64,000 bases of DNA. Origin: an archaeon. GTDB taxonomy: Archaea; Iainarchaeota; Iainarchaeia; Iainarchaeales; DTGL01. The stretch covers positions 532 to 64,531 of the forward strand of contig JAPDKC010000020.1 of assembly GCA_029258755.1 (NCBI GenBank). The letters run 5' to 3'. The position numbers were made by a program, and so were the translations under genes. The notes under the pieces are model-generated. The model was not told where the DNA came from. It did no database searches and saw nothing but the letters and a program-made list of their open reading frames with translations. The first letter of the stretch is position 1. The number at the start of each line of letters is the position of its first letter. This document shows, one piece after another, positions 3,381-33,320 of the stretch.

Positions 3381-4403
3381 ATGACATCACACACTAGAAA
3401 GTGGAAGGAAAAGCAAGTAGAGGAAATAAAAAAGATGTTGGATGAAAGCAAGATTGTTGCGATAGCTAGCTTAGAGCGTTTTCCAGCTTCCCACTTGCAG
3501 GAGTTAAAGAAAAAGTTAGCTTCTAAGGCAAAGATAAAGGTCTCGAAAACAAAAGTTATTGCGAGAGCTTTGGCAGAATCCAAGTACAAAGATATTGACT
3601 TCTCAAAATATTTGAGAGGTTCTATAGCGATTATAGTTTCTACTATGGATCCTTTCGAGCTTTACGCTACAATCAAAAAGAACAAAGCAAGTGCGTATGC
3701 GAAAGCAGGCATGGTTGCTGAGCAAGATATAGTGGTGCCAGCTGGCGACACCGGTTTGCCGCCAGGCCCAGATTTGAGCATACTAAAAGCAGCTGGCTTG
3801 CCAGCAATAATGAAAGGCTCTAGCATACAAATTGCAAAAGATACTGTTGTTGCTCGTAAAGGAGAAGTGATAAGTGAGGAAGTAGCAAGCGCATTAGCTA
3901 AACTAGATATAAAGCCCATACAACTAATGTTAAAAGTTTTGGTTGCATGTGATGGAAAATATCTTTATGATGCTAGCGTTCTTGATATAGATACGGAAAA
4001 GTTTGAAAGCGATTTAATAAGCTGCTATCAAAAAGCGTTTAACTTAGCTTTCAATATTGGTTATATAACACCGCAAAACATAGAGCTTTTCATCCAAAAG
4101 GCATTTAGAGAAGCAAAGCAGCTTGCATTGGACGCTAACTATATATCGCCATTAACTCTTCCAGAATTCATAGCTAAAGCCTATAATGCCGCAAACTCCT
4201 TAAGTTCTGTAGTGAAGGTAGATGCTAAGGAAACAGAGCAGCAGCAAGCTGAAGAAAGCACTCAAAACCAGCAAGAGCAAGCAGAAGAACAAAGCAATGC
4301 TAAGCAGACCAACGGGCAGCAAGAGACAAAGGATAAGCAAGCTGAAGAGAATAAGGAACAAGGTGGTTTAGAAGATTCAAACGCTGAAGCACAATCCAAA
4401 TAA
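3381..4403 (+). CDS. rpl10: 50S ribosomal stalk protein L10/P0 (uL10)
   Basis: P0-type L10 with a long acidic Q/E-rich C-terminus and the conserved L1-L10-L12 order. Confidence 0.88.
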   Translation: MTSHTRKWKEKQVEEIKKMLDESKIVAIASLERFPASHLQELKKKLASKAKIKVSKTKVIARALAESKYKDIDFSKYLRGSIAIIVSTMDPFELYATIKKNKASAYAKAGMVAEQDIVVPAGDTGLPPGPDLSILKAAGLPAIMKGSSIQIAKDTVVARKGEVISEEVASALAKLDIKPIQLMLKVLVACDGKYLYDASVLDIDTEKFESDLISCYQKAFNLAFNIGYITPQNIELFIQKAFREAKQLALDANYISPLTLPEFIAKAYNAANSLSSVVKVDAKETEQQQAEESTQNQQEQAEEQSNAKQTNGQQETKDKQAEENKEQGGLEDSNAEAQSK

Positions 4404-5971: not shown

Positions 5972-6050
5972 TCAATTCATCTAGAATAAAAATTATTTAA
6001 ACACTTTTGCATTATTTCTTAAATGTTTAATCAAATTTAGGTGATTTTTT

Positions 6051-8459
6051 ATGCTTTCTAGAAAACTTCTGTTAGCTTTTTTCCTTCTTCTAACGCTTAC
6101 TAGGTGCTTTGCAGTAATTGAGGAAGCGTCCATCCCTATATTCGCTGTTACAGAGTCGGAAGATAGAGCAGTAAGAGCGGAACTTACTATTAAGATAGTT
6201 CCTGGAAGCGGAAAAATTTGGAGCTCTGTAGGTCCTTTAGTAGGAACCTCAACCCAACATACGGAAAAGATTGCTGTGGAGCTTGCGAAAAATTACTCTG
6301 ACGAGGTAGAGAAGTACGATTATATGTTCGATATAAATTCTACTGCCAGCGTTGTTGAGGGCCCAAGCGCGGGAGCAGCGATGGCATTGCTTTTAATCAC
6401 AATGCTTCAGGACAAAAAGCTGCCTGGGTATGTTGCGATAACAGGGCAAATAAGTGAAGATGGCTCAATAGGTTCTGTTGGAGGAATATTCCTAAAAGCA
6501 GAAAAAGCTGCTCAAACAGGAATAAAGCTCTTTATGATTCCCAAAGGAGATGCTTATCAAACACATCGTTTTCCAGATGGTATAAAGACAGTTAACCTCG
6601 TTGAATACGCTCCTAAAGAATGGGGGATGAAGGTTGTAGAGGTATCAAACATAGATGAAGCATTGGCTTATGCTTTTACTCCTTTGGAGAAGATAGATAT
6701 AAATACTCAAGTTAAGGAGCAAAAACCTTTCGCTCCAGAAGTAATACCGCTTAAAGACAAACTTAAACCAATGAAATCACTTACTTCAAAATACATTGAA
6801 AAAGCAGAGGAAACAATTGATGCCGCAAAAGATGCCCTAAACAACAGCAAGCTTTTGGATCAGCAGGTAATATCCGTACTGCTTCAATCTCTTACAAATT
6901 CCCAAAAAAATATAGAAAAAGCCAAACTTCTGTATGAGGCCAATTATTTGTATTCAGCAGCAAACTATGCTTTTGTTTCCCTAGTTAATGCACGTCTTGT
7001 TAAGGATTTGGCAGAGAACCCTTCGTTGCTAAAATCAGATTCGGTATTGCTAAAAAGCTTAGTATCGCAGCTTGGTGAGAAGATTGAAGAACTTTCTAAA
7101 CAGCTCGATAAGTTCTACACTATTGAGCGATTTGAATGGCTTGTTGCTGCAAAGGAAAGGATCTCTTGGGCAGAACTCAACTTAAACAAAATAAAAAATA
7201 TAAAAACAGTAATAATCACCAACACCGGCATAACTGAGGGCATATCTGTGCCTCTGAAGAATTTGCAGGACTATGAATTCGCTTTGGGGTGGTATGAAAT
7301 AGCAAGCGATTTTTATAACATAGCGAAAGAAGCTAATGACAAATTCCAGGCGGAGCCATTCCTTGAAGAAGAGGCAAGAATGTATATAATAAAAGCAGAA
7401 AATTGTGTAGCGACATTATACGAGGAAGATGAGGACATAAGCAGACGCTTAGAAGCTGCAAGATTCGAATTTAAAAAGGAATGGTATGACGCAGCTCTTT
7501 TCGATGCAGCTAGCGCGTATGGGCTGTGCTCCTCTCATGAGGAAACTAAAGGCAAATCTCTATCGGAGCTTATCTCTACACTGGAAGAAAAAATAACCGC
7601 AGTCAAAAACAAATTGCTACATGATAAGGGTGCTGTCTGGCCAGAGCTTTACATAACCCATGCAGAATATTTCCTAAAATCAGCAAAGCATTACAAAGAA
7701 GAAAAAGCTTTTTCTAAAGCGATAGAAGATGCTAAAGCAGGTATAAGTTTGGCCCTATTTGCAAAAGAACTCTTAGATGCCTCTTTGGATGCGAGAAACA
7801 AACTTGTAAAAATCTCACGCAAACCATTTGCTGAAGAGCTACCTGAAATAACTCCAGAGTTGCCATCACCAGGCGAACAAGAAAGCCCGATTAATAAGTT
7901 TGCCATGAATGTGGGCATTGTAATTTCGATCCTGATACTTCTGTGCTTTTTAGTAGCAATACTTATTCTATTTATCAAAAGGCAGGATTACGAAAAAGCA
8001 GCAGGCGAGAAAGAAGTGTTAAAAGGAAAAATAAACACGATAGAAAATATGTTAAAAGAACTCGATAAAAGATTCATGCGCAATAAAATAACAAAGCAAG
8101 AGTACCTTTCAAGGAAAAATGTTTATGAGAAGCAGCTTCGCGCCTTAAAGGAAGAACTCTCAAGAAAATCAAAACATCTGCTTGAGATAGATAGAATTAG
8201 GGCACAGCTGAAGGAAGTCCAATTTATGTTGGATCAAATAAAAGCCCAGTATGAAGCAGGCGAACTTCTCGAGGAGGATTACCGAAAAGCATTTTCAAAA
8301 TATCTCAGCAAACTAGAGAAACTCAAAGAGGAGCTTGCAGTTGAGGAGCAAGAACTAGCGCAAGAAAAGAAAAAGATAGAAAAACTTGCAAACTTTCCGA
8401 AGAGAGGGAAACAAAAGGTACTTAGCAAAGCCTACAAAAGTAGAAGTAAAAGGCGTTAA
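6051..8459 (+). CDS. Secreted, membrane-anchored protein with an N-terminal Lon-type S16 peptidase domain, a long helical region, a single TM helix and a C-terminal coiled-coil basic tail; it has no AAA+ module
   Basis: Signal-peptide-like 'MLSRKLLLAFFLLLTLTRCFA'. Lon proteolytic-domain motifs 'VVEGPSAGAAMALLLITML' (catalytic Ser context) and 'ITGQISEDGSIGSVGGIFLKAEKAAQTGIKLFMIPKGD' (catalytic Lys context). TM helix 'MNVGIVISILILLCFLVAILILFI' is encoded at about 7907-7978. No Walker motifs are present. Confidence 0.6.
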   Translation: MLSRKLLLAFFLLLTLTRCFAVIEEASIPIFAVTESEDRAVRAELTIKIVPGSGKIWSSVGPLVGTSTQHTEKIAVELAKNYSDEVEKYDYMFDINSTASVVEGPSAGAAMALLLITMLQDKKLPGYVAITGQISEDGSIGSVGGIFLKAEKAAQTGIKLFMIPKGDAYQTHRFPDGIKTVNLVEYAPKEWGMKVVEVSNIDEALAYAFTPLEKIDINTQVKEQKPFAPEVIPLKDKLKPMKSLTSKYIEKAEETIDAAKDALNNSKLLDQQVISVLLQSLTNSQKNIEKAKLLYEANYLYSAANYAFVSLVNARLVKDLAENPSLLKSDSVLLKSLVSQLGEKIEELSKQLDKFYTIERFEWLVAAKERISWAELNLNKIKNIKTVIITNTGITEGISVPLKNLQDYEFALGWYEIASDFYNIAKEANDKFQAEPFLEEEARMYIIKAENCVATLYEEDEDISRRLEAARFEFKKEWYDAALFDAASAYGLCSSHEETKGKSLSELISTLEEKITAVKNKLLHDKGAVWPELYITHAEYFLKSAKHYKEEKAFSKAIEDAKAGISLALFAKELLDASLDARNKLVKISRKPFAEELPEITPELPSPGEQESPINKFAMNVGIVISILILLCFLVAILILFIKRQDYEKAAGEKEVLKGKINTIENMLKELDKRFMRNKITKQEYLSRKNVYEKQLRALKEELSRKSKHLLEIDRIRAQLKEVQFMLDQIKAQYEAGELLEEDYRKAFSKYLSKLEKLKEELAVEEQELAQEKKKIEKLANFPKRGKQKVLSKAYKSRSKRR

Positions 8460-11419
8460 GCACCTTCTAAAATCTTCTGTTCCAAATCTAGCCCTATAAC
8501 GCTTGATTTATCCTTGCTCATAGTCACGCCGATTATTTGGTCAGCTTTCTTTATAACAGCCTGGTTGTGGGTTATAACAATAATCTGGGCTTTTTTCGAG
8601 AATTCTTTCAAAGCGCTAGCTACTTTTTCAGAATTTATCTCATCCAGAGCTGCATCGGCTTCATCCAAAACATAGAGAGGTGCTGGCTTGTAGAGGAGTA
8701 TTGCGAAAATAAATGTAAGTGCTGTAAGAGTTTTTTCGCCACCGCTCATGCTATCTATAGATTGAAGCGCTTTGCCTTTATGTTTCGCCTCTATTATAAG
8801 GCCTGCGGAGGTGGGCTCATTATAATCGGTAAGCTTTAGTTCTGCATAACCTCCAAAAAATTTGTAAAACATGTTTGAAAAATTCTTTCTAATAGCGTTA
8901 AAGCATTCCATAAAAACCTCATTTCTTTTTATCTCTATCTTCCTTATCATATCAAGCACAGCTTCTCTTTCTTCCTCGAGTTTTTGTATCTTTTCCTTCA
9001 CCTCGAGCAGGGAAGCTTCTTCTTCCTTTATTGCCTCCGCTGCTTTTAGATTCACAGGCCCTATCGCTGCAAGCTCCTTTTCAACTTTTGCAAGCTCTTT
9101 CTTCAATTCCTTCGCGGTTAGTTCTGTTAGCAATTGTGTTTTTGGAAGATTTTTCAATTCCTCCTCCAAATCGGTAAGCCTTACCTCACTCTTCCCTATT
9201 TCCAAGCGAGCATTGTTTATCTCTTTTTCAATGAGCTTTTTCTCATTTTCCAAAGATTCCAGTTCGCTGCTCAATTTTTCAGCATGGATAAGCATGTTCT
9301 CCTTCTTATTGATAAGTCCTTTTATCGATTCTGCCCTTTCATTCCTCTTTATCTCAAGCTTTGCCAATCTTTCTTTAAACTTTTGTAGTGCCTTATTCCT
9401 TTCCTCGATGAATGTTTCGTTTTCCCTCTTTTCTTCAGCCAGCTTTTGTATCTTCGTCCTTATTTTTTTAATCTCTTCATCTAAAGATTTGATACGCTGC
9501 TCAGATGATGTGAGATTGTGCTCTAAAAGCTCTTTTTTGTGCTTTAGTTCCGCAAGCCTTTCTCTTAACAGTGTTGCCTCATCGCTTTTAAGTTTTCCTA
9601 ATTCTTCGAGCAAAAGTGCTTTTCTTTCCTTTATTTTGATCCTCTCGTTTTCGAGTTTATTTAGCTCTGCTTTGATAGATTCCAAATCAATTAGAGAGTG
9701 TTTTTCCTTCTCTAAAAGAATTGAAAGTTCCTTAAGTTCTTTTGTCAGTTCCTTGTAAGCTGAGCATTCCCTGCTAAGCTCATTTAGCTTTTCCAAATCA
9801 GCTTCAGCAGAAGCTATCTTCTCAGAAAGTTCTCGCAAAGCTTTCTTGGTTTCATTAAGCTTTTGCTCTAAGAACACTAAACCCTTCTTTTTCTTCTCCA
9901 GCAATGACTTTCTTTTAGCTTCGTCCAAAGTACTTTCGCATAGAGGGCATTTGGTTTTAACCTTCTCAAGACTGCTTAACGCTTCTTTTGTTTGCTCAAT
10001 CTTTGTTAGTATTTCCCTTTCATTCCCTATTAGCTCTTTTTCTCGGGCTTTTAAGGAACGCAATAATGAATCCAAATTTTTTCCCTCTAAAACCTGCATT
10101 TGCTCCTTTAGTTTGCTTAGCTTATCTCTCTGTTTTGTTAGTTCCTCTATTCTTCTTTCAAGCTCCGCTATTCTTTCTTTCCTCATTTCATTTTCTTTTT
10201 CCGCACTACTCAGCAATTTTTGTTTTTTAACCAATTCTCTGTTTATTTCCTCGATTTGTTCCTCAAGAGCCTTAAGCTTGTTTTCAATTCCTAACGCTTT
10301 TTCCTCAGAATCTTTTGCTGCTTCCTCTACTTCAATAAGCTTGCTTTCCACCTCTTCGAGCTCTTTTCCTATAGATGCAATCTTTTGCTTGTATTCCTCT
10401 ATCTTTTTTTCCTCAACCTTTTTTTGTTCGAGCGCGTTTTTAAGTTCTTCTGCCAACTCTTCCTCCTGCTGATCCAATCTCTCAATAAGCTCTTTTCTTG
10501 CGATTATCTGTTGTTCTGTAACCTTAAGCTTGCTGTTTAACTCCTCTATTTGCTTTCCATACTCTTCGAATAGCTTACTTTGCTCTTCCATTATTTTATT
10601 CGCTAAAGCATCGATCTTTTCCTTGAGCTCCTTAATCCTTTTCTTTATTTTATTCGCTAAGCCCTCTTTTTTCTCAAGAAGCTCTAAACTTTTTTTCAGC
10701 TTTTGCTTGTTTCGCTCAATCTCAGCATTTATAGAATCTATTTCTTTCTTAAGCATTGTTGCTTTAATCGCATCCCTGCGCTTAACAAGCTTTTGGTATC
10801 GCTCTGCCTGTTCGCGTTCCCTTTGAAGCTCCTCCAAGCGCTTTAATCTTTCTCCCAGAACCAGATTTACATCCTTTATCTTTTCATTCACCTTGTCCAA
10901 ATTTTTTTGCGCTTCTTCGCGTTTCAATTCAAATTCTTTTATGCCTGCAAGCTCATCTATTATTGTTCTCCTCTGCTCAGGGCTCATTTCGATTATTCTT
11001 GTAACATCGCCTTGAGCTATAAAATTATGGGCATTCCTTAAGCCGAGCTCTTTAACAAGCGAGACAAGCTCGCTAAGAGATTTTTGCTCATCGTTAATTC
11101 TACAAATGCTCTTTCCTTTCATATCTATAGTTCTGCTCAATGTAATTGTTTCCTTCCCTCTTTTTATTTTAAGTTCCACTTTTCCGTATTTTTCTCTAGC
11201 GTTGCTGTTAATCAAATCCGTTATTCGCGATGCGCGCAAGCTTCTCATAGATGTTTCGCCGAGAACAAAAAGCAGAGAATCGAGTATATTGCTTTTTCCT
11301 GAGCCGTTGGGTCCCACTATTACAGTAAACCCTTTCCTAAATGGTATATTTGCTTTTTTAAATGATTTAAAGTTCTTAAGCTTCAGCTCCTTAAGCTCTA
11401 CCATAGGAATCGCTGTCAT
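8456..11419 (-). CDS. smc: SMC-like chromosome-organisation ATPase with a central CxxC (zinc-hook-like) motif in place of a hinge domain
   Basis: N-terminal 'FRKGFTVIVGPNGSGKSNILDSLLFVLG' (SMC-type Walker A). C-terminal 'MSGGEKTLTALTFIFAILLYKPAPLYVLDEADAALDE' plus 'QIIVITHNQAVIKKADQIIGVTM' (SMC-type signature, Walker B and D-loop). The roughly 650 aa between them is predicted to be continuous coiled coil with no globular hinge. Mid-protein 'KVKTKCPLCESTLDE' is encoded at about 9935-9949. Confidence 0.75.
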   Translation of the reverse strand: MTAIPMVELKELKLKNFKSFKKANIPFRKGFTVIVGPNGSGKSNILDSLLFVLGETSMRSLRASRITDLINSNAREKYGKVELKIKRGKETITLSRTIDMKGKSICRINDEQKSLSELVSLVKELGLRNAHNFIAQGDVTRIIEMSPEQRRTIIDELAGIKEFELKREEAQKNLDKVNEKIKDVNLVLGERLKRLEELQREREQAERYQKLVKRRDAIKATMLKKEIDSINAEIERNKQKLKKSLELLEKKEGLANKIKKRIKELKEKIDALANKIMEEQSKLFEEYGKQIEELNSKLKVTEQQIIARKELIERLDQQEEELAEELKNALEQKKVEEKKIEEYKQKIASIGKELEEVESKLIEVEEAAKDSEEKALGIENKLKALEEQIEEINRELVKKQKLLSSAEKENEMRKERIAELERRIEELTKQRDKLSKLKEQMQVLEGKNLDSLLRSLKAREKELIGNEREILTKIEQTKEALSSLEKVKTKCPLCESTLDEAKRKSLLEKKKKGLVFLEQKLNETKKALRELSEKIASAEADLEKLNELSRECSAYKELTKELKELSILLEKEKHSLIDLESIKAELNKLENERIKIKERKALLLEELGKLKSDEATLLRERLAELKHKKELLEHNLTSSEQRIKSLDEEIKKIRTKIQKLAEEKRENETFIEERNKALQKFKERLAKLEIKRNERAESIKGLINKKENMLIHAEKLSSELESLENEKKLIEKEINNARLEIGKSEVRLTDLEEELKNLPKTQLLTELTAKELKKELAKVEKELAAIGPVNLKAAEAIKEEEASLLEVKEKIQKLEEEREAVLDMIRKIEIKRNEVFMECFNAIRKNFSNMFYKFFGGYAELKLTDYNEPTSAGLIIEAKHKGKALQSIDSMSGGEKTLTALTFIFAILLYKPAPLYVLDEADAALDEINSEKVASALKEFSKKAQIIVITHNQAVIKKADQIIGVTMSKDKSSVIGLDLEQKILEGA

Positions 11420-12275: not shown

Positions 12276-13241
12276 TTATTCCAAGATCTCCACATGGTCT
12301 ATCAAGCCATCGCTGTCCAAATCTAGGCCTTCGACAACATGAGCGCAGCTACGCTTGTTAAACCTATTCGGCTTTATTATCTCCTCTGTGTTTTGAATTA
12401 AAGCCAAAACAGCCGCTTTTGTTCCAGCATTCCTTTTTCCCGCTATAAACAATATAGCCTTATCCTCGAAGTAAGGGTGCTTTATCTTCTCTATTATCCC
12501 AACAGCGTCTTCCGTGTATTCTTTCTCGGAGTTCTCGCTTATTATGAGCCAGTGAGCGTTCTTCTGCTCAAACCTTATGGAAAGATGTTCGTTCACTTCA
12601 GCGCTTGTTTTATTTGTTATTGGACCTCCGATAACTATAATATTATCATTTACTTTGCTTATATGGGGAAGCATCGTATCTAAAAACACGTAAGGGTAAC
12701 GAATGCTTCTGCAGAGGGTTCCGAGAAAGCCAGCAAGTTCTGTAGCTATGTGAGCATCTCTGGCCCTTGCTTTAAATACGCCGTGCGAATCTGGGGCGCC
12801 AACAACAATCTTCGCGTTGAGCTCGTTGTTTTCTATAAATGGATGGAAGAATTCTTGCAAGGGCTTTGGCATCCCTTTTTCCATGCCCTGAAGCTTTGAT
12901 ATGCTTGCAGAATCAAGTTGAGGAACAAAAGCAAAGCAGCTAACGTTTGCTTTGTAGTATTTCGCTAAGCCGCCTCTTTTTTCCTCGCGCTTTGTAAGCT
13001 TCACTAAGCCAGCGTTTTTGAGTTTATTTATATAATAATAAACCTCTTGTTGCTGCAATCCAAGTTTCTTTGCGATGTCTGCAGGATAGCTTTCCTTTTT
13101 GGAGAGCTCTTTAAATATAAGCCAGCATTTTTCATTTAGCAATGGTTTCAGCTTTTCTGTTGATTCTAGTACTTCAGCATCACACACGAAATACCTATTA
13201 TCTTTTTGAAAGGATAAACGAGCAAGCAATCTTACCACCAT
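12276..13241 (-). CDS. Winged-helix (ArsR/MarR-like) domain protein with an uncharacterised C-terminal domain
   Basis: 'SYPADIAKKLGLQQQEVYYYINKLKNAGLVKLTKRE' is a wHTH recognition helix plus wing. The C-terminal roughly 200 aa has no recognised motifs. Same strand as, and upstream of, the membrane-protein/SMC-like pair. Confidence 0.5.
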   Translation of the reverse strand: MVVRLLARLSFQKDNRYFVCDAEVLESTEKLKPLLNEKCWLIFKELSKKESYPADIAKKLGLQQQEVYYYINKLKNAGLVKLTKREEKRGGLAKYYKANVSCFAFVPQLDSASISKLQGMEKGMPKPLQEFFHPFIENNELNAKIVVGAPDSHGVFKARARDAHIATELAGFLGTLCRSIRYPYVFLDTMLPHISKVNDNIIVIGGPITNKTSAEVNEHLSIRFEQKNAHWLIISENSEKEYTEDAVGIIEKIKHPYFEDKAILFIAGKRNAGTKAAVLALIQNTEEIIKPNRFNKRSCAHVVEGLDLDSDGLIDHVEILE

Positions 13242-16508: not shown

Positions 16509-17131
16509 AAATAACTATTGAGAGTATTCTTGAGGAGGCTAAAAAGCTTATTGATGACCCCGAGCCAAAATTCTGGGAACTTATAAACAAGCTGGAAAAG
16601 GTTGAGATAAAAACAGAACTCCTTGGCGAAATAGAGGATAACGTTGTAATAAAAGGTGATCTTTACTTAGGTAAAAATTCTGTGATAAAATCTGGAACGA
16701 GGATAGAAGGAAATGTATATATAGGTGAAAACTGCACCATAGGACCAAATGCTTATTTTCGTGGCAATGTTATCATTGCCAACAACTGCAAAATCTCGTA
16801 CTCGGAAATAAAAAACTCCATAATACTTTCACATACAAATGTTCCGCATTTCTCTTATGTAGGAGATTCTATATTGGGGGAAGATGTAAATCTCGGTGCA
16901 GGTACGAAGATAGCAAACCTGCGCTTAGATGAAAAAAATATTCAAGTAGAGATTTGCGGAAAAAAGTTTGACAGCAATAGAAGAAAGCTGGGTGCCCTTA
17001 TAAAATCCGGCACAAAAACTGGAATAAACGTTTCCATAAACTGTGGCGTTGTAATTGGAAAAAATTGCTTTATATATCCAGGGGCATTTGTTAAAGAAAG
17101 CATAGCCGATAATACTATTTTTACGCGCTAA
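16505..17131 (+). CDS. Hexapeptide-repeat (left-handed beta-helix) acetyltransferase, resembling the GlmU C-terminal domain
   Basis: Repeated [LIV]G-x4 hexapeptides ('IGENCTIGPNAYFRGNVIIANNCKI'). No N-terminal nucleotidyltransferase domain. Translationally coupled to glmM. Confidence 0.7.
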   Translation: MKITIESILEEAKKLIDDPEPKFWELINKLEKVEIKTELLGEIEDNVVIKGDLYLGKNSVIKSGTRIEGNVYIGENCTIGPNAYFRGNVIIANNCKISYSEIKNSIILSHTNVPHFSYVGDSILGEDVNLGAGTKIANLRLDEKNIQVEICGKKFDSNRRKLGALIKSGTKTGINVSINCGVVIGKNCFIYPGAFVKESIADNTIFTR

Positions 17132-19850
17132 GAAATTCAAGCTCTTTTCCAGTAAAACCATCGATAAAAATGCGCCTTTTCTTCCCGGTTTTTATATTCT
17201 CCACAATTCCTTCATAGACAGGCCAGTAAATCTCTTTTATAGATGTTACCACGAGCTTCTTCCATATCTTTTGTAGAAGTTCACGCACCTCTCTTTTCGA
17301 ATATCTTTCTTTTTCCTTCATGATAGCTTGTGCAGTAACCAAAGGAAGTTTTTGCAGAGAAAGATGCAGGCTGTGCAAAGGTGTTCTTGGCAGGTCAAAC
17401 TTCTTTTTTATACAATAAAGGATAACACCATTTTTCTCCATCTTTTTAACAAGATCGTTTTCAATAAGCTTCTTTAATATTCTTTTTACCTTGTTTTCAT
17501 CCATAAACGCCTTCTTGCTTACCTGGGATGCACTTAGCGGGGTTGTCAAAAAGTTCAGTACCTTTATCTCATTATCGCTTAAACCATAGAGATCCTTAAG
17601 CCCCTTGGATTCTACAAAGCCTTCTTTAAAATGGAGAAATTCTCCAGTGTAAGAATTTACAAAAAGCACACTTTGCCTAAACATATTCTTTTCGTTAAAA
17701 TAGTTGAATTCGACCTTATAAACAGGTATATACTTGAGGTTAGTTTCTATTAATCGCTCGCTTCCGGGAAGCAAACCAAAGAGCTTGCTAACCTTTTTCC
17801 TAATTTTAGATTCAGCCTTTTCTTTTGCATATCTTATTGGAAAGGCTAAAAGCTCAAGTTTTTCTTCTGCCTCCTTTTCAGGGATTTCAACGGGCTTTTC
17901 TTCCTCAACTTTTTTCATTTCCGGTTCTGACACAGCAGCAGGCTTCTTTTCCTCCAGAAAAACCATGCCTTCTTCCTCATTAACTTTGGCTCCCTTGTTT
18001 TCTAATTCTAATAGCACATCCTGAAGCTCAAGGTTTGAGCTATACTTGGTATTTAACGAGTTCAACGTTCTGCTTATTTCCGCAAGCTTTGCCCTTCCGT
18101 CCCTCTTCAATCTTGCCCAGTACATAGAGCTTATAAGCTTTAGCACTTGCTCATCGCTTAGCTCAACTTTTGTTTCGATTGTTTCGGTTTCCCTGCCTTC
18201 GTGCTGGCTCATTCTAGGCCTTACCTTCATTATGAAAGCCCTGCTTGTTTCTTCTCTGCGGTCACCAACCAAAGCAACGCCTGTAGGCAAAGTCCTTATA
18301 AAAGCCCCTGCCTTGAATTTGTGCGGAATTATTGCAGGTGTTCGCTTATAAACAGCCTTTATATCATCGTTGAAAACAAGCTTGTGAACAATTATTATAT
18401 CAAGCTGGCTTAGTACCTTAGTATCTATTGCCGATGGCTGCTGTGTTGCAAAAACCAGAGAGCAGCCAGGCCTGCGACCCTGCTTTACATATTCTATTAA
18501 AGCATCGCTTGCTGCTGTTTTGATATTTCCACTCGGAATGAGCGTATGTGCTTCATCTATAAAAAGCCACGTTGGCGGAATTTGGATCTCGAGAAGCTCT
18601 TCTGCTGAGCTTTCAAACCGCTTAGCAGCTTCTTTCCTTGTAGCTATCTTTCTTGCAGCTAATATGCGTCTGGCCAGAATTCCTATTACAAGTGCAGTAA
18701 CATTATCATCCAAAAAACTTGTGTCTATAATTGTAAGCTGACCTTCTCTGCTAAGTTCGCTAAGCGGTGTGCCTTCTATATCAAAAATGCCCCATGATTT
18801 AGCAGCCTCAAACCTACTTGTTAGAGCTCTTATAGAATCCACTTTATAGCCGCGGTCTCTAGAATTAAGTTCAGCATCATTTTCTAGGCAGAATATGATA
18901 TCATCAAGTGAATAATCCTTAGTGCCTTTAATTCGCTCTTTATCTATGGTAATATATCCTTTCTCAACTTTCTCTAAAGCTTTTTCTAGCAGCAAACCCG
19001 TTGGGCTAAAGCGATCTATTCCAAATGTTAGGCACCAATCCTGAGCTGTAAGCATTGAGGGCTTTATGGAGAATGTTGCATCATAGGTGCCTTTAGGCGT
19101 CTGAGACTCCATCCCCTTTGGAATAAAAACAACTATATTATCAAGCCCTTTTGGCTCAAGCCCCCATTTTTTTAGCTCCTCAACCTCTTTTTCTTCGCGA
19201 TTGGCATATCTCATGCTCCAGAAGACGCCGACAGGATCAACAACAATTATGCCAACATCGGGGTTTTTTAGCGCTAGCTCCTCAGCAATCACGCCAAGCA
19301 CATAACTTTTTCCGCTGCCACGAGCACCGCAAACAAAAACAACATGAGGATTTAAACTATCTAACAAGATATCCTTTTCTTTATAGCCAGGTTCGTGTAC
19401 GCGGCCTATAAAAAGAGCTGCTTGTGATCCATACTTTTCATATACGGATTTTTTTCTGCCAATAAACGCTCGGCCTTCCTCATCTTCAAGGAATTTTAGT
19501 TCAGGAAGTATAATATCGCTTCCCTCCGCAACTACAACCTTCCCTTTATCCTCCTTCTTAGCTTTTTTCTTATCTCCTTCTTTTTTCTCCCCTTTTTTAT
19601 CTTCCTTAATTTCTTCTCCCCTTTCCTCTTCAAGAACGGCTTCCTCTTTTATGTTTTTTTCTTTTTCCGGCTCAGCGTATATGCTTTCGCTTTCTTTACT
19701 TTCCTTTTCTATTTTTTCTTTTTCCTTTTTTGCAATCTCACTCAGCTTTTTCCTAGCTTCTTTCAGCTCCTCATCTAAGCCAAACACTTCCTCAAATAAG
19801 TCCTGCTCTTCACTATCCTTCTCTATAACAACCCTTTTCTTCTCGGCCAT
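17121..19850 (-). CDS. HerA/FtsK-superfamily P-loop ATPase (DUF87-like) with a K/E-rich disordered N-terminus and a C-terminal extension of about 340 aa containing a winged-helix-like segment
   Basis: Walker A 'VFVCGARGSGKSYVLGV' and Walker B 'WLFIDEAHTLIP'. HerA-type 'SLVFATQQPSAIDTKVLSQLDIIIVHKLVFNDD'. The N-terminal 110 aa is KE low-complexity. Confidence 0.65.
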   Translation of the reverse strand: MAEKKRVVIEKDSEEQDLFEEVFGLDEELKEARKKLSEIAKKEKEKIEKESKESESIYAEPEKEKNIKEEAVLEEERGEEIKEDKKGEKKEGDKKKAKKEDKGKVVVAEGSDIILPELKFLEDEEGRAFIGRKKSVYEKYGSQAALFIGRVHEPGYKEKDILLDSLNPHVVFVCGARGSGKSYVLGVIAEELALKNPDVGIIVVDPVGVFWSMRYANREEKEVEELKKWGLEPKGLDNIVVFIPKGMESQTPKGTYDATFSIKPSMLTAQDWCLTFGIDRFSPTGLLLEKALEKVEKGYITIDKERIKGTKDYSLDDIIFCLENDAELNSRDRGYKVDSIRALTSRFEAAKSWGIFDIEGTPLSELSREGQLTIIDTSFLDDNVTALVIGILARRILAARKIATRKEAAKRFESSAEELLEIQIPPTWLFIDEAHTLIPSGNIKTAASDALIEYVKQGRRPGCSLVFATQQPSAIDTKVLSQLDIIIVHKLVFNDDIKAVYKRTPAIIPHKFKAGAFIRTLPTGVALVGDRREETSRAFIMKVRPRMSQHEGRETETIETKVELSDEQVLKLISSMYWARLKRDGRAKLAEISRTLNSLNTKYSSNLELQDVLLELENKGAKVNEEEGMVFLEEKKPAAVSEPEMKKVEEEKPVEIPEKEAEEKLELLAFPIRYAKEKAESKIRKKVSKLFGLLPGSERLIETNLKYIPVYKVEFNYFNEKNMFRQSVLFVNSYTGEFLHFKEGFVESKGLKDLYGLSDNEIKVLNFLTTPLSASQVSKKAFMDENKVKRILKKLIENDLVKKMEKNGVILYCIKKKFDLPRTPLHSLHLSLQKLPLVTAQAIMKEKERYSKREVRELLQKIWKKLVVTSIKEIYWPVYEGIVENIKTGKKRRIFIDGFTGKELEFLSA

Positions 19851-31721: not shown

Positions 31722-33320
31722 ATGCCAAATAAAAAGACGATTAAAGAATTTTTAAAACCAGATTGGAAAAAGATTGTTCTGAGCTTTTTGCTGCTTTTAG
31801 CTTGTTTTTTGTTTTTCGTTTCAGTAACTGCTTTGCCCATGCCAGTCTCCATGATTCCTGTTATTACAGGCTTGTTCTTGGCACTCCTTTTGCCCTTTGC
31901 CGTGGTTTATAATCTGTTGTCTTTTGGTATTCCGGATATTGTTGCATTAATTATAGCTTTTAGTTTGCATGTTTTCTATTTTTATGTCGTTTCCTGCTTT
32001 TTAGTGTGCTTATTGGCACGCCTAAAGAATTTGATAGTGTCCATAAAATGGAGTAAATGGGATGCAAAAACACTTGGTGTTCTGGCGAGTATAGCAGTGA
32101 TTGGAATCGCTGTTTATGGCTTTCTAAATCTTGGTTGGACCGACATATTTATTCCGACTGCTGATGACAGCGGAGCAACGCCAGAAGGGATTACAGAGGT
32201 GGTTAAGGCAAATAACCAGTTTGCTATCAAGCTTTACTCGGAAATAAGCAAAGATTCTAATGGAAACATATTTTTCTCTCCTTGGAGTGTATCAACTGCA
32301 ATGGCAATGGTGTATGAAGGTGCTCGGGGCCGGACGGCAGATGAAATAAGATCCGTTTTTCAGTTTCCTGAAGATAATGACAGAAGAAGGTTTTCCTTTG
32401 CGAGACTACTGAATACAGTGAACAAGACTAGCGGAAGATACGAATTTCATGTTGCGAATGCAATATGGTTGCAGAAGGAATATCCTTTTTTAGAGGAATA
32501 CAAAAATATAATATGGAGATATTATTTAGGTGAAATCAGGAATGTAGATTTTGTAAATGATGCTGCCAGCTCAAGTAATGAGATAAATAACTGGGTTGCA
32601 GACCATACAAATAACAAAATAAGAGAAATTGTGCGTCCAGAGATGTTCAACGAACTTACCCGTGCTGTGCTTACGAATGCGATATATTTCAAAGGAAAAT
32701 GGAAATACCAGTTTGATAAGCAACACACAAAACCGGAGGATTTTATCCTTGGTTCTGGAGAAAAGGTTAAGGTTCCAATGATGCAGCTTATGGATTCAGA
32801 TTTGGAATTCAATTATGCGGAAATGGATGGTGTGCAGATACTTGAAATAAAATATCAGGGTGACAAAATATCAATGCTGGTTCTCCTGCCAAGAACTAAC
32901 ATACACTACTTAGAATCAATACTGACTGAAGAAAGGCTTCAGAAGTGGCGAAACAGCCTTAAACCCGAAATAGTTTACATATACATGCCCAAATATAAAT
33001 TTGAAACCTCTTACTCATTAACAGACTATTTAAAAGATATGGGAATGCATTCACCTTTTGAATGGCCTGGTGCAGATTTCTCTGGAATTGATGGAACAAA
33101 GACGCTTTACATTAGCGATATCTTGCATAAAGCATACGTAGATGTCTGTGAGGAAGGCACAGAGGCAGCAGCGGCAACTACCATTCTTGTTACGAAAGGA
33201 GCAGCACCCAAGCACCCAGTAGTATTTAGAGCAGACCGTCCGTTTATATTCATAATACAGGAAAGCAAAACGGGAAACATTCTTTTCATTGGCAGGGTAA
33301 TGCAGCCTGTAGGTTATTGA
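31722..33320 (+). CDS. Serpin (serine protease inhibitor) with an N-terminal multi-TM membrane anchor
   Basis: About 140 aa with 3-4 hydrophobic helices, then a serpin core 'NIFFSPWSVSTAMAMVYEGARGRT', hinge/RCL 'EEGTEAAAATTILV' and C-terminal 'FRADRPFIFIIQESKTGNILFIGRV'. Confidence 0.8.
   Translation: MPNKKTIKEFLKPDWKKIVLSFLLLLACFLFFVSVTALPMPVSMIPVITGLFLALLLPFAVVYNLLSFGIPDIVALIIAFSLHVFYFYVVSCFLVCLLARLKNLIVSIKWSKWDAKTLGVLASIAVIGIAVYGFLNLGWTDIFIPTADDSGATPEGITEVVKANNQFAIKLYSEISKDSNGNIFFSPWSVSTAMAMVYEGARGRTADEIRSVFQFPEDNDRRRFSFARLLNTVNKTSGRYEFHVANAIWLQKEYPFLEEYKNIIWRYYLGEIRNVDFVNDAASSSNEINNWVADHTNNKIREIVRPEMFNELTRAVLTNAIYFKGKWKYQFDKQHTKPEDFILGSGEKVKVPMMQLMDSDLEFNYAEMDGVQILEIKYQGDKISMLVLLPRTNIHYLESILTEERLQKWRNSLKPEIVYIYMPKYKFETSYSLTDYLKDMGMHSPFEWPGADFSGIDGTKTLYISDILHKAYVDVCEEGTEAAAATTILVTKGAAPKHPVVFRADRPFIFIIQESKTGNILFIGRVMQPVGY

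Follow-up and report, generated by a model that had tools for sequence, protein, structure and literature searches.

An extracytoplasmic, membrane-tethered Lon-domain protease predicted in the Iainarchaeota

Textbooks present Lon as an ATP-fuelled protease of the cytoplasm, and the one archaeal form that has, to our knowledge, been studied is LonB, which is membrane-bound and faces the cytoplasm. What, then, is to be made of a Lon proteolytic domain that follows directly on an export signal and has no ATPase beside it? The question is raised by an open reading frame (ORF) at positions 6051-8459 (+) of a 64,000-nucleotide (nt) stretch of DNA from an archaeon of the Iainarchaeota (assembly GCA_029258755.1, contig JAPDKC010000020.1, positions 532 to 64,531 of the forward strand). 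This whole stretch, which has a G+C content of ~39%, is referred to here as the window. The evidence makes it probable that the ORF encodes an ATP-independent, extracytoplasmic, type I single-pass membrane protease of the Iainarchaeota (Diapherotrites, within the DPANN archaea) that is YlbL/SepM-like in character.

The ORF is an uninterrupted frame of 802 codons encoding a protein of 802 amino acids (aa), exactly as a preliminary description of this DNA had it. Its parts were delimited by profile searches, sequence rules and an AlphaFold2 (AF2) model built on 46 homologues, for which the predicted local distance difference test score (pLDDT) of the full-length protein averages 84.7:

6032..6037 (approximate to within 1-2 nt), + strand: Shine-Dalgarno-like AGGTGA, 6 nt upstream of the ATG, read from the sequence
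6051..6113, + strand: predicted Sec-type signal peptide, aa 1-21 (MLSRKLLLAFFLLLTLTRCFA, then VIEE), from the (-3,-1) rule and homologue statistics
6114..6674, + strand: Lon (MEROPS S16) proteolytic domain, aa 22-208, from Pfam Lon_C, PDB sequence matches and Foldseek
6366-6368, + strand: predicted catalytic Ser106, within GPSAG
6441-6443, + strand: conserved Thr131, within ITGQ
6495-6497, + strand: predicted catalytic Lys149, within GGIFLK
6675..6755, + strand: interdomain linker, aa 209-235, non-helical in the AF2 model (pLDDT 67-76)
6756..7811, + strand: family-specific all-alpha ectodomain, aa 236-587, from the AF2 model and profile searches
7812..7898, + strand: Pro/Glu-rich juxtamembrane spacer, aa 588-616, ISRKPFAEELPEITPELPSPGEQESPINK, from sequence composition
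7899..7976, + strand: single transmembrane helix, a predicted stop-transfer anchor, aa 617-642, from hydropathy and an AF2 helix at 614-650
7977..8456, + strand: basic coiled-coil tail, predicted to be cytoplasmic, aa 643-802, from composition, AF2 helices and the positive-inside rule
8457-8459, + strand: stop codon of the Lon-like ORF

Most of this layout had been anticipated. The absence of an AAA+ module is borne out by Pfam and NCBIfam scans of the protein and of 46 family members, which returned no AAA+, LON or other ATPase domain of any kind. The transmembrane helix, expected at about 7907-7978, lies close to that position, and the charged coiled-coil tail is indeed present as 160 K/R/E-rich residues with a net charge of +16. 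Only the helical region, put at about 450 aa, has to be resized: it is helical as described, and the folded domain spans ~350 aa (aa 236-587), with a linker of 27 aa before it and a Pro/Glu-rich juxtamembrane segment of 29 aa after it. This last segment is disordered in the model and poorly conserved in the family consensus, and its residues 605-616 have pLDDT values below 50. Within the linker, I215, D216, F227 and P229 are invariant within the Iainarchaeota and variable in distant relatives.

The identity of the N-terminal domain is well established. Lon_C (PF05362) is the sole Pfam domain above threshold (aa 84-180; 45.8 bits against a gathering score of 21.1; E 7e-12), its profile matches all 46 family members, and the sequence matches found in the PDB are exclusively Lon proteolytic domains (P-domains). 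The AF2 model contains a complete Lon P-domain at aa 25-208, which Foldseek superposes on 3wu6, 1rr9, 1xhk and 2x36 with target TM-scores of 0.72-0.79 over ~200 columns; the 3wu6/1rr9 superposition of aa 22-208 gave E 5e-9 and a target TM-score of 0.76. On alignment to Escherichia coli Lon (1rr9), Ser106, Thr131 and Lys149 correspond to S679, T704 and K722, respectively, the last of these having been assigned by counting residues from the C-terminus of the E. coli enzyme. Conservation was judged in two alignments, one of the 46 family members and one of 42 sequences composed of 12 from the Iainarchaeota and 30 from distant DPANN relatives. S106, K149 and T131 are invariant in the former, and in the latter G104, P105, S106, G108, K149, T68, Q69 and P164 are found in every sequence, with T131 in 40 and Ser in the remaining two. 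The Ser and Lys contexts noted in the preliminary description are thus intact, and the dyad stands when aligned to Lon catalytic domains. The protein belongs genuinely to the S16 Lon-domain proteins, and peptidase activity is predicted for it; a decaying pseudo-enzyme is ruled out by the invariance of the catalytic residues and the conservation of the family.

The orientation of this domain was assessed by hydropathy, the (-3,-1) rule and the positive-inside rule across the 46 homologues. A basic n-region and a hydrophobic core form the start of all 46 proteins, in a leader that averages ~22 residues. The leader of the window's protein ends in a C-F-A motif that fits the (-3,-1) rule; the position aligned with Ala21 (-1) is Ala in 45 homologues and Gly in the other, and position -3 is A, V, C, S, T or G in 45 of the 46. 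The leader is probably cleaved after Ala21. A lipoprotein signal was considered and rejected, as Cys occupies -3 in only eight members. One further strong hydrophobic helix, at ~aa 610-640, is present in every protein; in that of the window it reaches a 19-residue Kyte-Doolittle mean of 3.54 and is directly followed by KRQDYEK. Around this helix, K and R number 0.8 per 15 residues before and 3.3 after, with the excess on the C-terminal side in 44 of 46 proteins, and all 46 tails are net positive (mean +16). A weaker hydrophobic signal at aa 101-119 was rejected as a transmembrane segment, being the buried active-site helix of the Lon fold. Because a signal peptide is combined with a C-terminal transmembrane helix of positive-inside bias, the Lon domain is placed outside. 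The sequence statistics thereby support an extracytoplasmic position for the Lon and helical domains and a cytoplasmic one for the tail, whether or not the leader is cleaved. The claim of an outward-facing, membrane-tethered S16 domain is upheld by the near-constant Ala at -1, the charge bias and the single C-terminal anchor.

Behind the protease lies a domain for which no known relative was found. Residues 236-587 are modelled as ~12 helices in two sub-bundles, with pLDDT values mostly above 90 within the full-length model; modelled alone, the domain has a pLDDT of 89.4 and a predicted TM-score of 0.89. It matched no Pfam or NCBIfam family and no sequence profile of the PDB. Foldseek returned nothing at E<1e-3 from either the PDB or BFVD, the best PDB hits being de novo designed bundles (E 0.046, TM-score ~0.2). 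The helical domain is therefore a fold orphan within Pfam, NCBIfam, PDB and BFVD. A HMMER profile of the domain, run against 1.84 billion cluster representatives, recovered only 268 proteins. In these the domain begins at about residue 190-250 wherever the N-terminus is present, and Lon_C precedes it in all ten proteins that were scanned, nine of them from the distant tier of relatives described below. As the helical domain is found only behind Lon_C and at a fixed position, the two form an obligate pair. About 25 of its positions are invariant in the 46-sequence alignment, and its recognizable motifs are NYLYSAAN (aa 298-305), R370, W414, W530 and a LYLDHA-like sequence. Across the 42 sequences, Y301 and R370 are invariant, N305, F308 and W414 are kept in 40, and W530 in 38. 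Judged by this conservation, the leading candidates for a functional site are these six residues.

The family so defined is narrowly distributed. A word-indexed search of 5.8 billion proteins gave 195 matches; the best 120 of these range from 674 to 874 aa, with 93-100% of the query covered in most and 35-70% identity to it, and nearly all of those that carry a name are assigned to 'Candidatus Diapherotrites'. When a single genome of each GTDB species was scanned, at least 101 loci were recovered, nearly all in Iainarchaeum/Diapherotrites (Iainarchaeota). Carriers include Ca. Iainarchaeum andersonii, the complete AR10 genome and Ca. Forterrea, and the closest loci, at 71% identity, belong to the metagenome-assembled genomes (MAGs) AUK092 and Meg22_1214_Bin_231. 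A second tier of ~590-760 aa proteins (E 1e-13 to 1e-43) has the leader, the Lon domain (with GPSAG or GPSGG), the helical domain and the transmembrane helix, followed by basic tails of 4 to ~130 residues; its named members are from Aenigmarchaeota, Ca. Undinarchaeum marinum, Undinarchaeales and Naiadarchaeales. Database labels read 'S16 family serine protease', 'Lon proteolytic domain-containing protein' or 'SHOCT domain-containing protein', and one JGI/IMG member is a 'predicted S18 family serine protease', a wording close to what we take to be the name of COG1750, 'Predicted archaeal serine protease, S18 family'. These S16 and S18 labels are generic, domain-level ones and are silent on the helical domain, the topology and the tail. 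Literature searches on COG1750, on Lon with Diapherotrites or Iainarchaeota, and on Lon_C with a signal peptide found no description of this family.

Some peculiarities of individual assemblies were noted in passing. One MAG (JBAZQI01) holds either two copies of the Lon-like gene or a mixed bin. Two further loci are titled 'Thaumarchaeota archaeon' and 'Candidatus Falkowbacteria bacterium' despite an Iainarchaeota-type gene and synteny, and the MAGs in question are probably mis-binned or mislabelled.

The tail is the most variable part of the protein. In the window it comprises 31 K, 13 R, 23 E and 5 D; 11 of its last 25 residues are K or R and none is D or E. The AF2 model gives it three long helices (652-676, 682-735 and 741-780) and then a disordered, very basic end. 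Across the family the tails are modular. The shortest relatives have none, tails of ~55 aa carry one 'L..EGKISEKTYE.L.KKY' element, and the ~160-aa tails of the Iainarchaeota carry two such elements and a coiled coil; all tails that are present end in a basic stretch. The tail bears two SHOCT-like motifs, in which 'G-x-I-[ST]-x-x-x-Y' is visible by eye. The SHOCT model (PF09851) matches 6 of 46 family members (best E 7.5e-6), with no match in the window's protein or in four relatives with a single motif. The isolated tail also matched the CdvA coiled-coil model (PF18822) at E 8e-6, its 26.3 bits lying below the gathering score of 30, and three of the 46 members match this model. An archaeosortase (PGF-CTERM-type) signal was sought in the short-tailed relatives and rejected, since the 23 C-termini inspected share no conserved motif.

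How does this protein compare with known Lon-type systems? Its closest functional counterparts are bacterial. YlbL (DdcP) of Bacillus subtilis, like SepM of Streptococcus, is a membrane-anchored, AAA-less Lon-domain protease, and acts on the extracellular membrane protein YneA, a division inhibitor (PMC6051672). Both share with the Lon-like protein a Ser-Lys Lon domain without an ATPase, tethered with its catalytic side outside and accompanied by an accessory domain on the same chain. The SepM-family model NF041438 matches aa 95-207 (E 5e-11), that is, the protease domain only, at 42.2 bits against a cut-off of 200. The differences are nonetheless substantial. YlbL is anchored by an N-terminal transmembrane segment, whereas the Lon-like protein has a signal peptide and a C-terminal one. 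In place of the PDZ domain of YlbL and SepM it has the 350-aa all-alpha domain, located after the protease; no PDZ match was obtained at E<=1 in the protein itself, and none in the 46 members. Moreover, it adds the long cytoplasmic coiled-coil tail and comes from DPANN archaea, not Firmicutes.

Archaeal LonB (TIGR00764) is likewise archaeal and membrane-associated, and has the same proteolytic fold and dyad. However, LonB is an AAA+ protein with inserted transmembrane helices and a cytoplasmic protease domain, whereas the Lon-like protein lacks the AAA+ module and has the opposite topology, and scores 42.8 bits with this model against a cut-off of 516. The active-site motif also differs: a GPSA core characterizes LonA and [E/D]GDSA[S/T] archaeal LonB (PMC2605481), and the EGPSAG of the Lon-like protein has the core of LonA, not the LonB-type sequence. 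LonC (TIGR02903) offers a P-domain that works without ATP hydrolysis, MtaLonC degrading only unfolded substrates in an ATP-independent manner (PMC3391209). Its model matches the protease domain at E 2e-13, with 49.5 bits against a cut-off of 679, yet LonC is cytoplasmic and has a degenerate AAA-like domain N-terminal to the protease, where the Lon-like protein has only a signal peptide. The birnavirus VP4 proteases (PF01768) are stand-alone Ser-Lys enzymes of the Lon fold without an ATPase. Their Pfam matches are weak and sub-threshold (9 of 46 members; E 7e-4 and 20 bits against a cut-off of 24 for the window's protein), and VP4 is a self-processing enzyme of viral polyproteins with no membrane topology in common with the Lon-like protein. 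In general, the NCBIfam models for LonA, bacterial LonB, archaeal LonB, LonC and SepM align only through the C-terminal protease part, far below whole-protein cut-offs, and the LonA, LonB and LonC equivalog scores are all below 55 bits against cut-offs of 516-891. With no AAA+ module, no PDZ domain and the curated cut-offs out of reach, the protein is outside the LonA, LonB, LonC and SepM/YlbL families, and its resemblance to YlbL and SepM is a functional one. As an AAA-less, anchored Lon is already known from bacteria, the concept is less novel than comparison with LonB alone would suggest. What is new is the inverted anchoring, the fold-orphan helical domain, the cytoplasmic coiled-coil tail of the Iainarchaeota and the restriction to DPANN archaea.

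A working model follows from these comparisons. The Sec signal peptide would direct export, with cleavage expected after Ala21, leaving the Ser106-Lys149 domain and the helical domain on the external side of the cytoplasmic membrane, to which a flexible spacer and the C-terminal transmembrane helix would tether them. Since ATP is absent outside the cell and the protein has no AAA+ module, proteolysis would be ATP-independent and, by analogy with the AAA-less YlbL and SepM of Firmicutes and with isolated Lon P-domains, would for that reason act only on stretches of exported or membrane proteins that are unfolded, extended or specifically presented. The helical domain most likely replaces the PDZ domain of YlbL and SepM in substrate recognition or in gating of the active site, a role suggested by its constant pairing with Lon and by the invariant residues Y301, N305, R370, W414 and W530. 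Lon P-domains normally work as rings, and for this reason the tail, a lineage-specific addition, could speculatively be assigned to oligomerization; a second possibility is that its basic end docks the protease to a partner in the cytoplasm or at the membrane surface. The physiological role is probably the housekeeping processing or quality control of envelope proteins, as suggested by the near-universal presence of the gene in the phylum and its housekeeping neighbourhood.

If so, several DPANN lineages, and the Iainarchaeota almost universally, are predicted to export a bare Lon catalytic domain. The family would offer a defined and conserved candidate for a protease that processes envelope proteins or controls their quality, in organisms of which the surface biology, and possible host contact, is barely known, and an independent, non-PDZ way for Lon to achieve selectivity without an unfoldase. 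Being small, well delimited and confidently modelled, it also has an ectodomain tractable for expression, structure determination and substrate profiling.

In the window, one flank of the Lon-like ORF holds ftsZ, nusG, the ribosomal protein genes L11, L1, L10/P0 and P1, and then a divergent class-V aminotransferase gene. On the other flank lies a convergent SMC gene, 8456-11419 (-), whose stop codon overlaps that of the Lon-like ORF by 4 nt. Across 80 Iainarchaeota loci the gene is located between a (ftsZ-secE-nusG-)L11-L1-L10-P1 block and SMC. SMC is a neighbour in 62 of these loci, P1 in 59, L10 in 57 and FtsZ in 40, and the loci without them are mostly short contigs. The gene is inverted in place relative to the block in ~10 of the 80 (e.g. 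L046, L050, L052, L081, L082 and L085). P1 also precedes it in one more distant relative, an Aenigmarchaeota relative is divergent from an adjacent ftsZ, and the Undinarchaeota-type relatives are convergent with metK.

Several points weigh against an ATP-independent, outward-facing housekeeping protease. No constant partner gene or operon was found among the loci examined. The position between L10-P1 and SMC is best read as housekeeping placement and genome collinearity, not as an operon, because orientation flips and the Undinarchaeota-type relatives adjoin metK. The topology was derived from classical sequence rules, and proteolysis is predicted from sequence and model, with YlbL, the analogue, itself poorly understood. 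Purified YlbL lacking its transmembrane segment was inactive in vitro (PMC6051672). The parts given to the helical domain and the tail are ones that we infer. The tail's resemblance to SHOCT and CdvA stays sub-threshold in the window's protein and varies among members; a CdvA identity was rejected on these grounds, and a SHOCT one is tentative. The sole published experimental test of SHOCT did not support oligomerization (PMC3581485).

Other explanations have been weighed against the same evidence. An extracellular nutritional protease, degrading environmental or host-derived proteins to feed an organism of reduced metabolism, would suit an outward catalytic domain without a specific partner gene in a family confined to small-genome DPANN archaea (Iainarchaeota, Aenigmarchaeota, Undinarchaeota and Naiadarchaeales). 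Yet scavenging proteases are usually secreted, multi-copy and variable, whereas this one is tethered, apparently single-copy in nearly all loci, slowly evolving and fixed in architecture. In addition, a peptide transporter is linked to it in no locus examined, and Lon P-domains without an unfoldase cleave only unfolded chains (PMC3391209), so that a nutritional function is considered unlikely. A transmembrane regulatory protease for cell division or chromosome segregation, its coiled coil contacting FtsZ-, SMC- or CdvA-like machinery, would be in keeping with the frequency of SMC, P1 and FtsZ among the neighbours, the ftsZ adjacent to the Aenigmarchaeota relative, the weak CdvA match of the tail and the precedent of YlbL and YneA (PMC6051672). 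The ftsZ-secE-nusG-ribosomal-protein cluster recurs as a block, however, so this linkage may be passive, and neither the ~10 inversions nor the metK neighbourhood of the Undinarchaeota-type relatives is in its favour. The CdvA match, sub-threshold and confined to three of 46 members, is typical of coiled-coil cross-matches, and the tail, short or absent in distant relatives, is not part of the core function; a dedicated role in division or segregation accordingly appears quite improbable.

Still less credence is given to a catalytically inert structural or scaffolding protein of the envelope that retained the Lon fold. Lon-like domains without protease function do exist in RadA/Sms, ComM and ChlI, and weak ChlI Pfam matches in 18 of 46 members, together with an NCBIfam RadA/Sms match, could be read in this way, but Ser106 of GPSAG, Thr131 and Lys149 are invariant or near-invariant in ~76 sequences from several phyla, the signature of a maintained active site. 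The preliminary description had itself warned that the ORF might be a fusion of two genes, with an internal start near 7900. The modular appearance of the protein, and the tail missing from some relatives, would be compatible with an assembly or annotation fusion of a secreted Lon gene to a membrane coiled-coil gene. This origin is scarcely conceivable and was rejected: the frame is unbroken, ~200 full-length homologues of 750-870 aa, covering 93-100% of the query, are conserved as contiguous single ORFs in independent assemblies, the gene has this form in 80 genome loci as well, and the short-tailed relatives retain the transmembrane helix on the same polypeptide. A bolder reading than the favoured housekeeping protease may also be entertained, with considerable doubt. 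The Lon and helical domains would form a new type of self-gated, ATP-independent surface machine, in which a conserved pocket of Y301, N305 and R370 binds a specific envelope or host-surface ligand and, in the Iainarchaeota, the SHOCT-like coiled coil passes on or receives a signal across the membrane, making the protein a transmembrane protease-receptor of cell-cell (symbiont-host) contact or of envelope remodelling.

Other genes of the window merit brief mention. The SMC-like protein (987 aa) also matches the Rad50 zinc-hook model, narrowly exceeding its cut-off (E 1.4e-5), and P0/L10, at 3381-4403 (+), has an unusually long, low-complexity C-terminal extension of ~60 Q/E/K-rich residues. 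At 12276-13241 (-), a 321-aa protein pairs an N-terminal winged helix-turn-helix (HTH) domain of the TrmB/ArsR-like type with S_layer_C (PF05124), an odd combination kept two genes beyond SMC in close relatives. A 909-aa HerA-like ATPase (DUF87/HerA_C) fused to a C-terminal TrmB-type HTH is encoded at 17121-19850 (-). Between 20557 and 26424 (+) lie same-strand ORFs of 299, 428, 463, 189 and 303 aa, three of which begin with a transmembrane or signal-anchor helix; the four that were scanned gave no Pfam match, and the ORFs may encode envelope proteins. At 31722-33320 (+) the same genome encodes a 532-aa serpin (PF00079, E 5e-122, aa 163-529); about four hydrophobic helices (aa 18-135) precede the serpin domain, which would make the protein a membrane-anchored inhibitor of serine proteases. 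Finally, two genes away from the Lon-like gene and ftsZ of one Aenigmarchaeota locus (L005, 1-5179) is an ORF of more than 6100 aa that carries PT-HINT/intein-like and DUF6687 domains.

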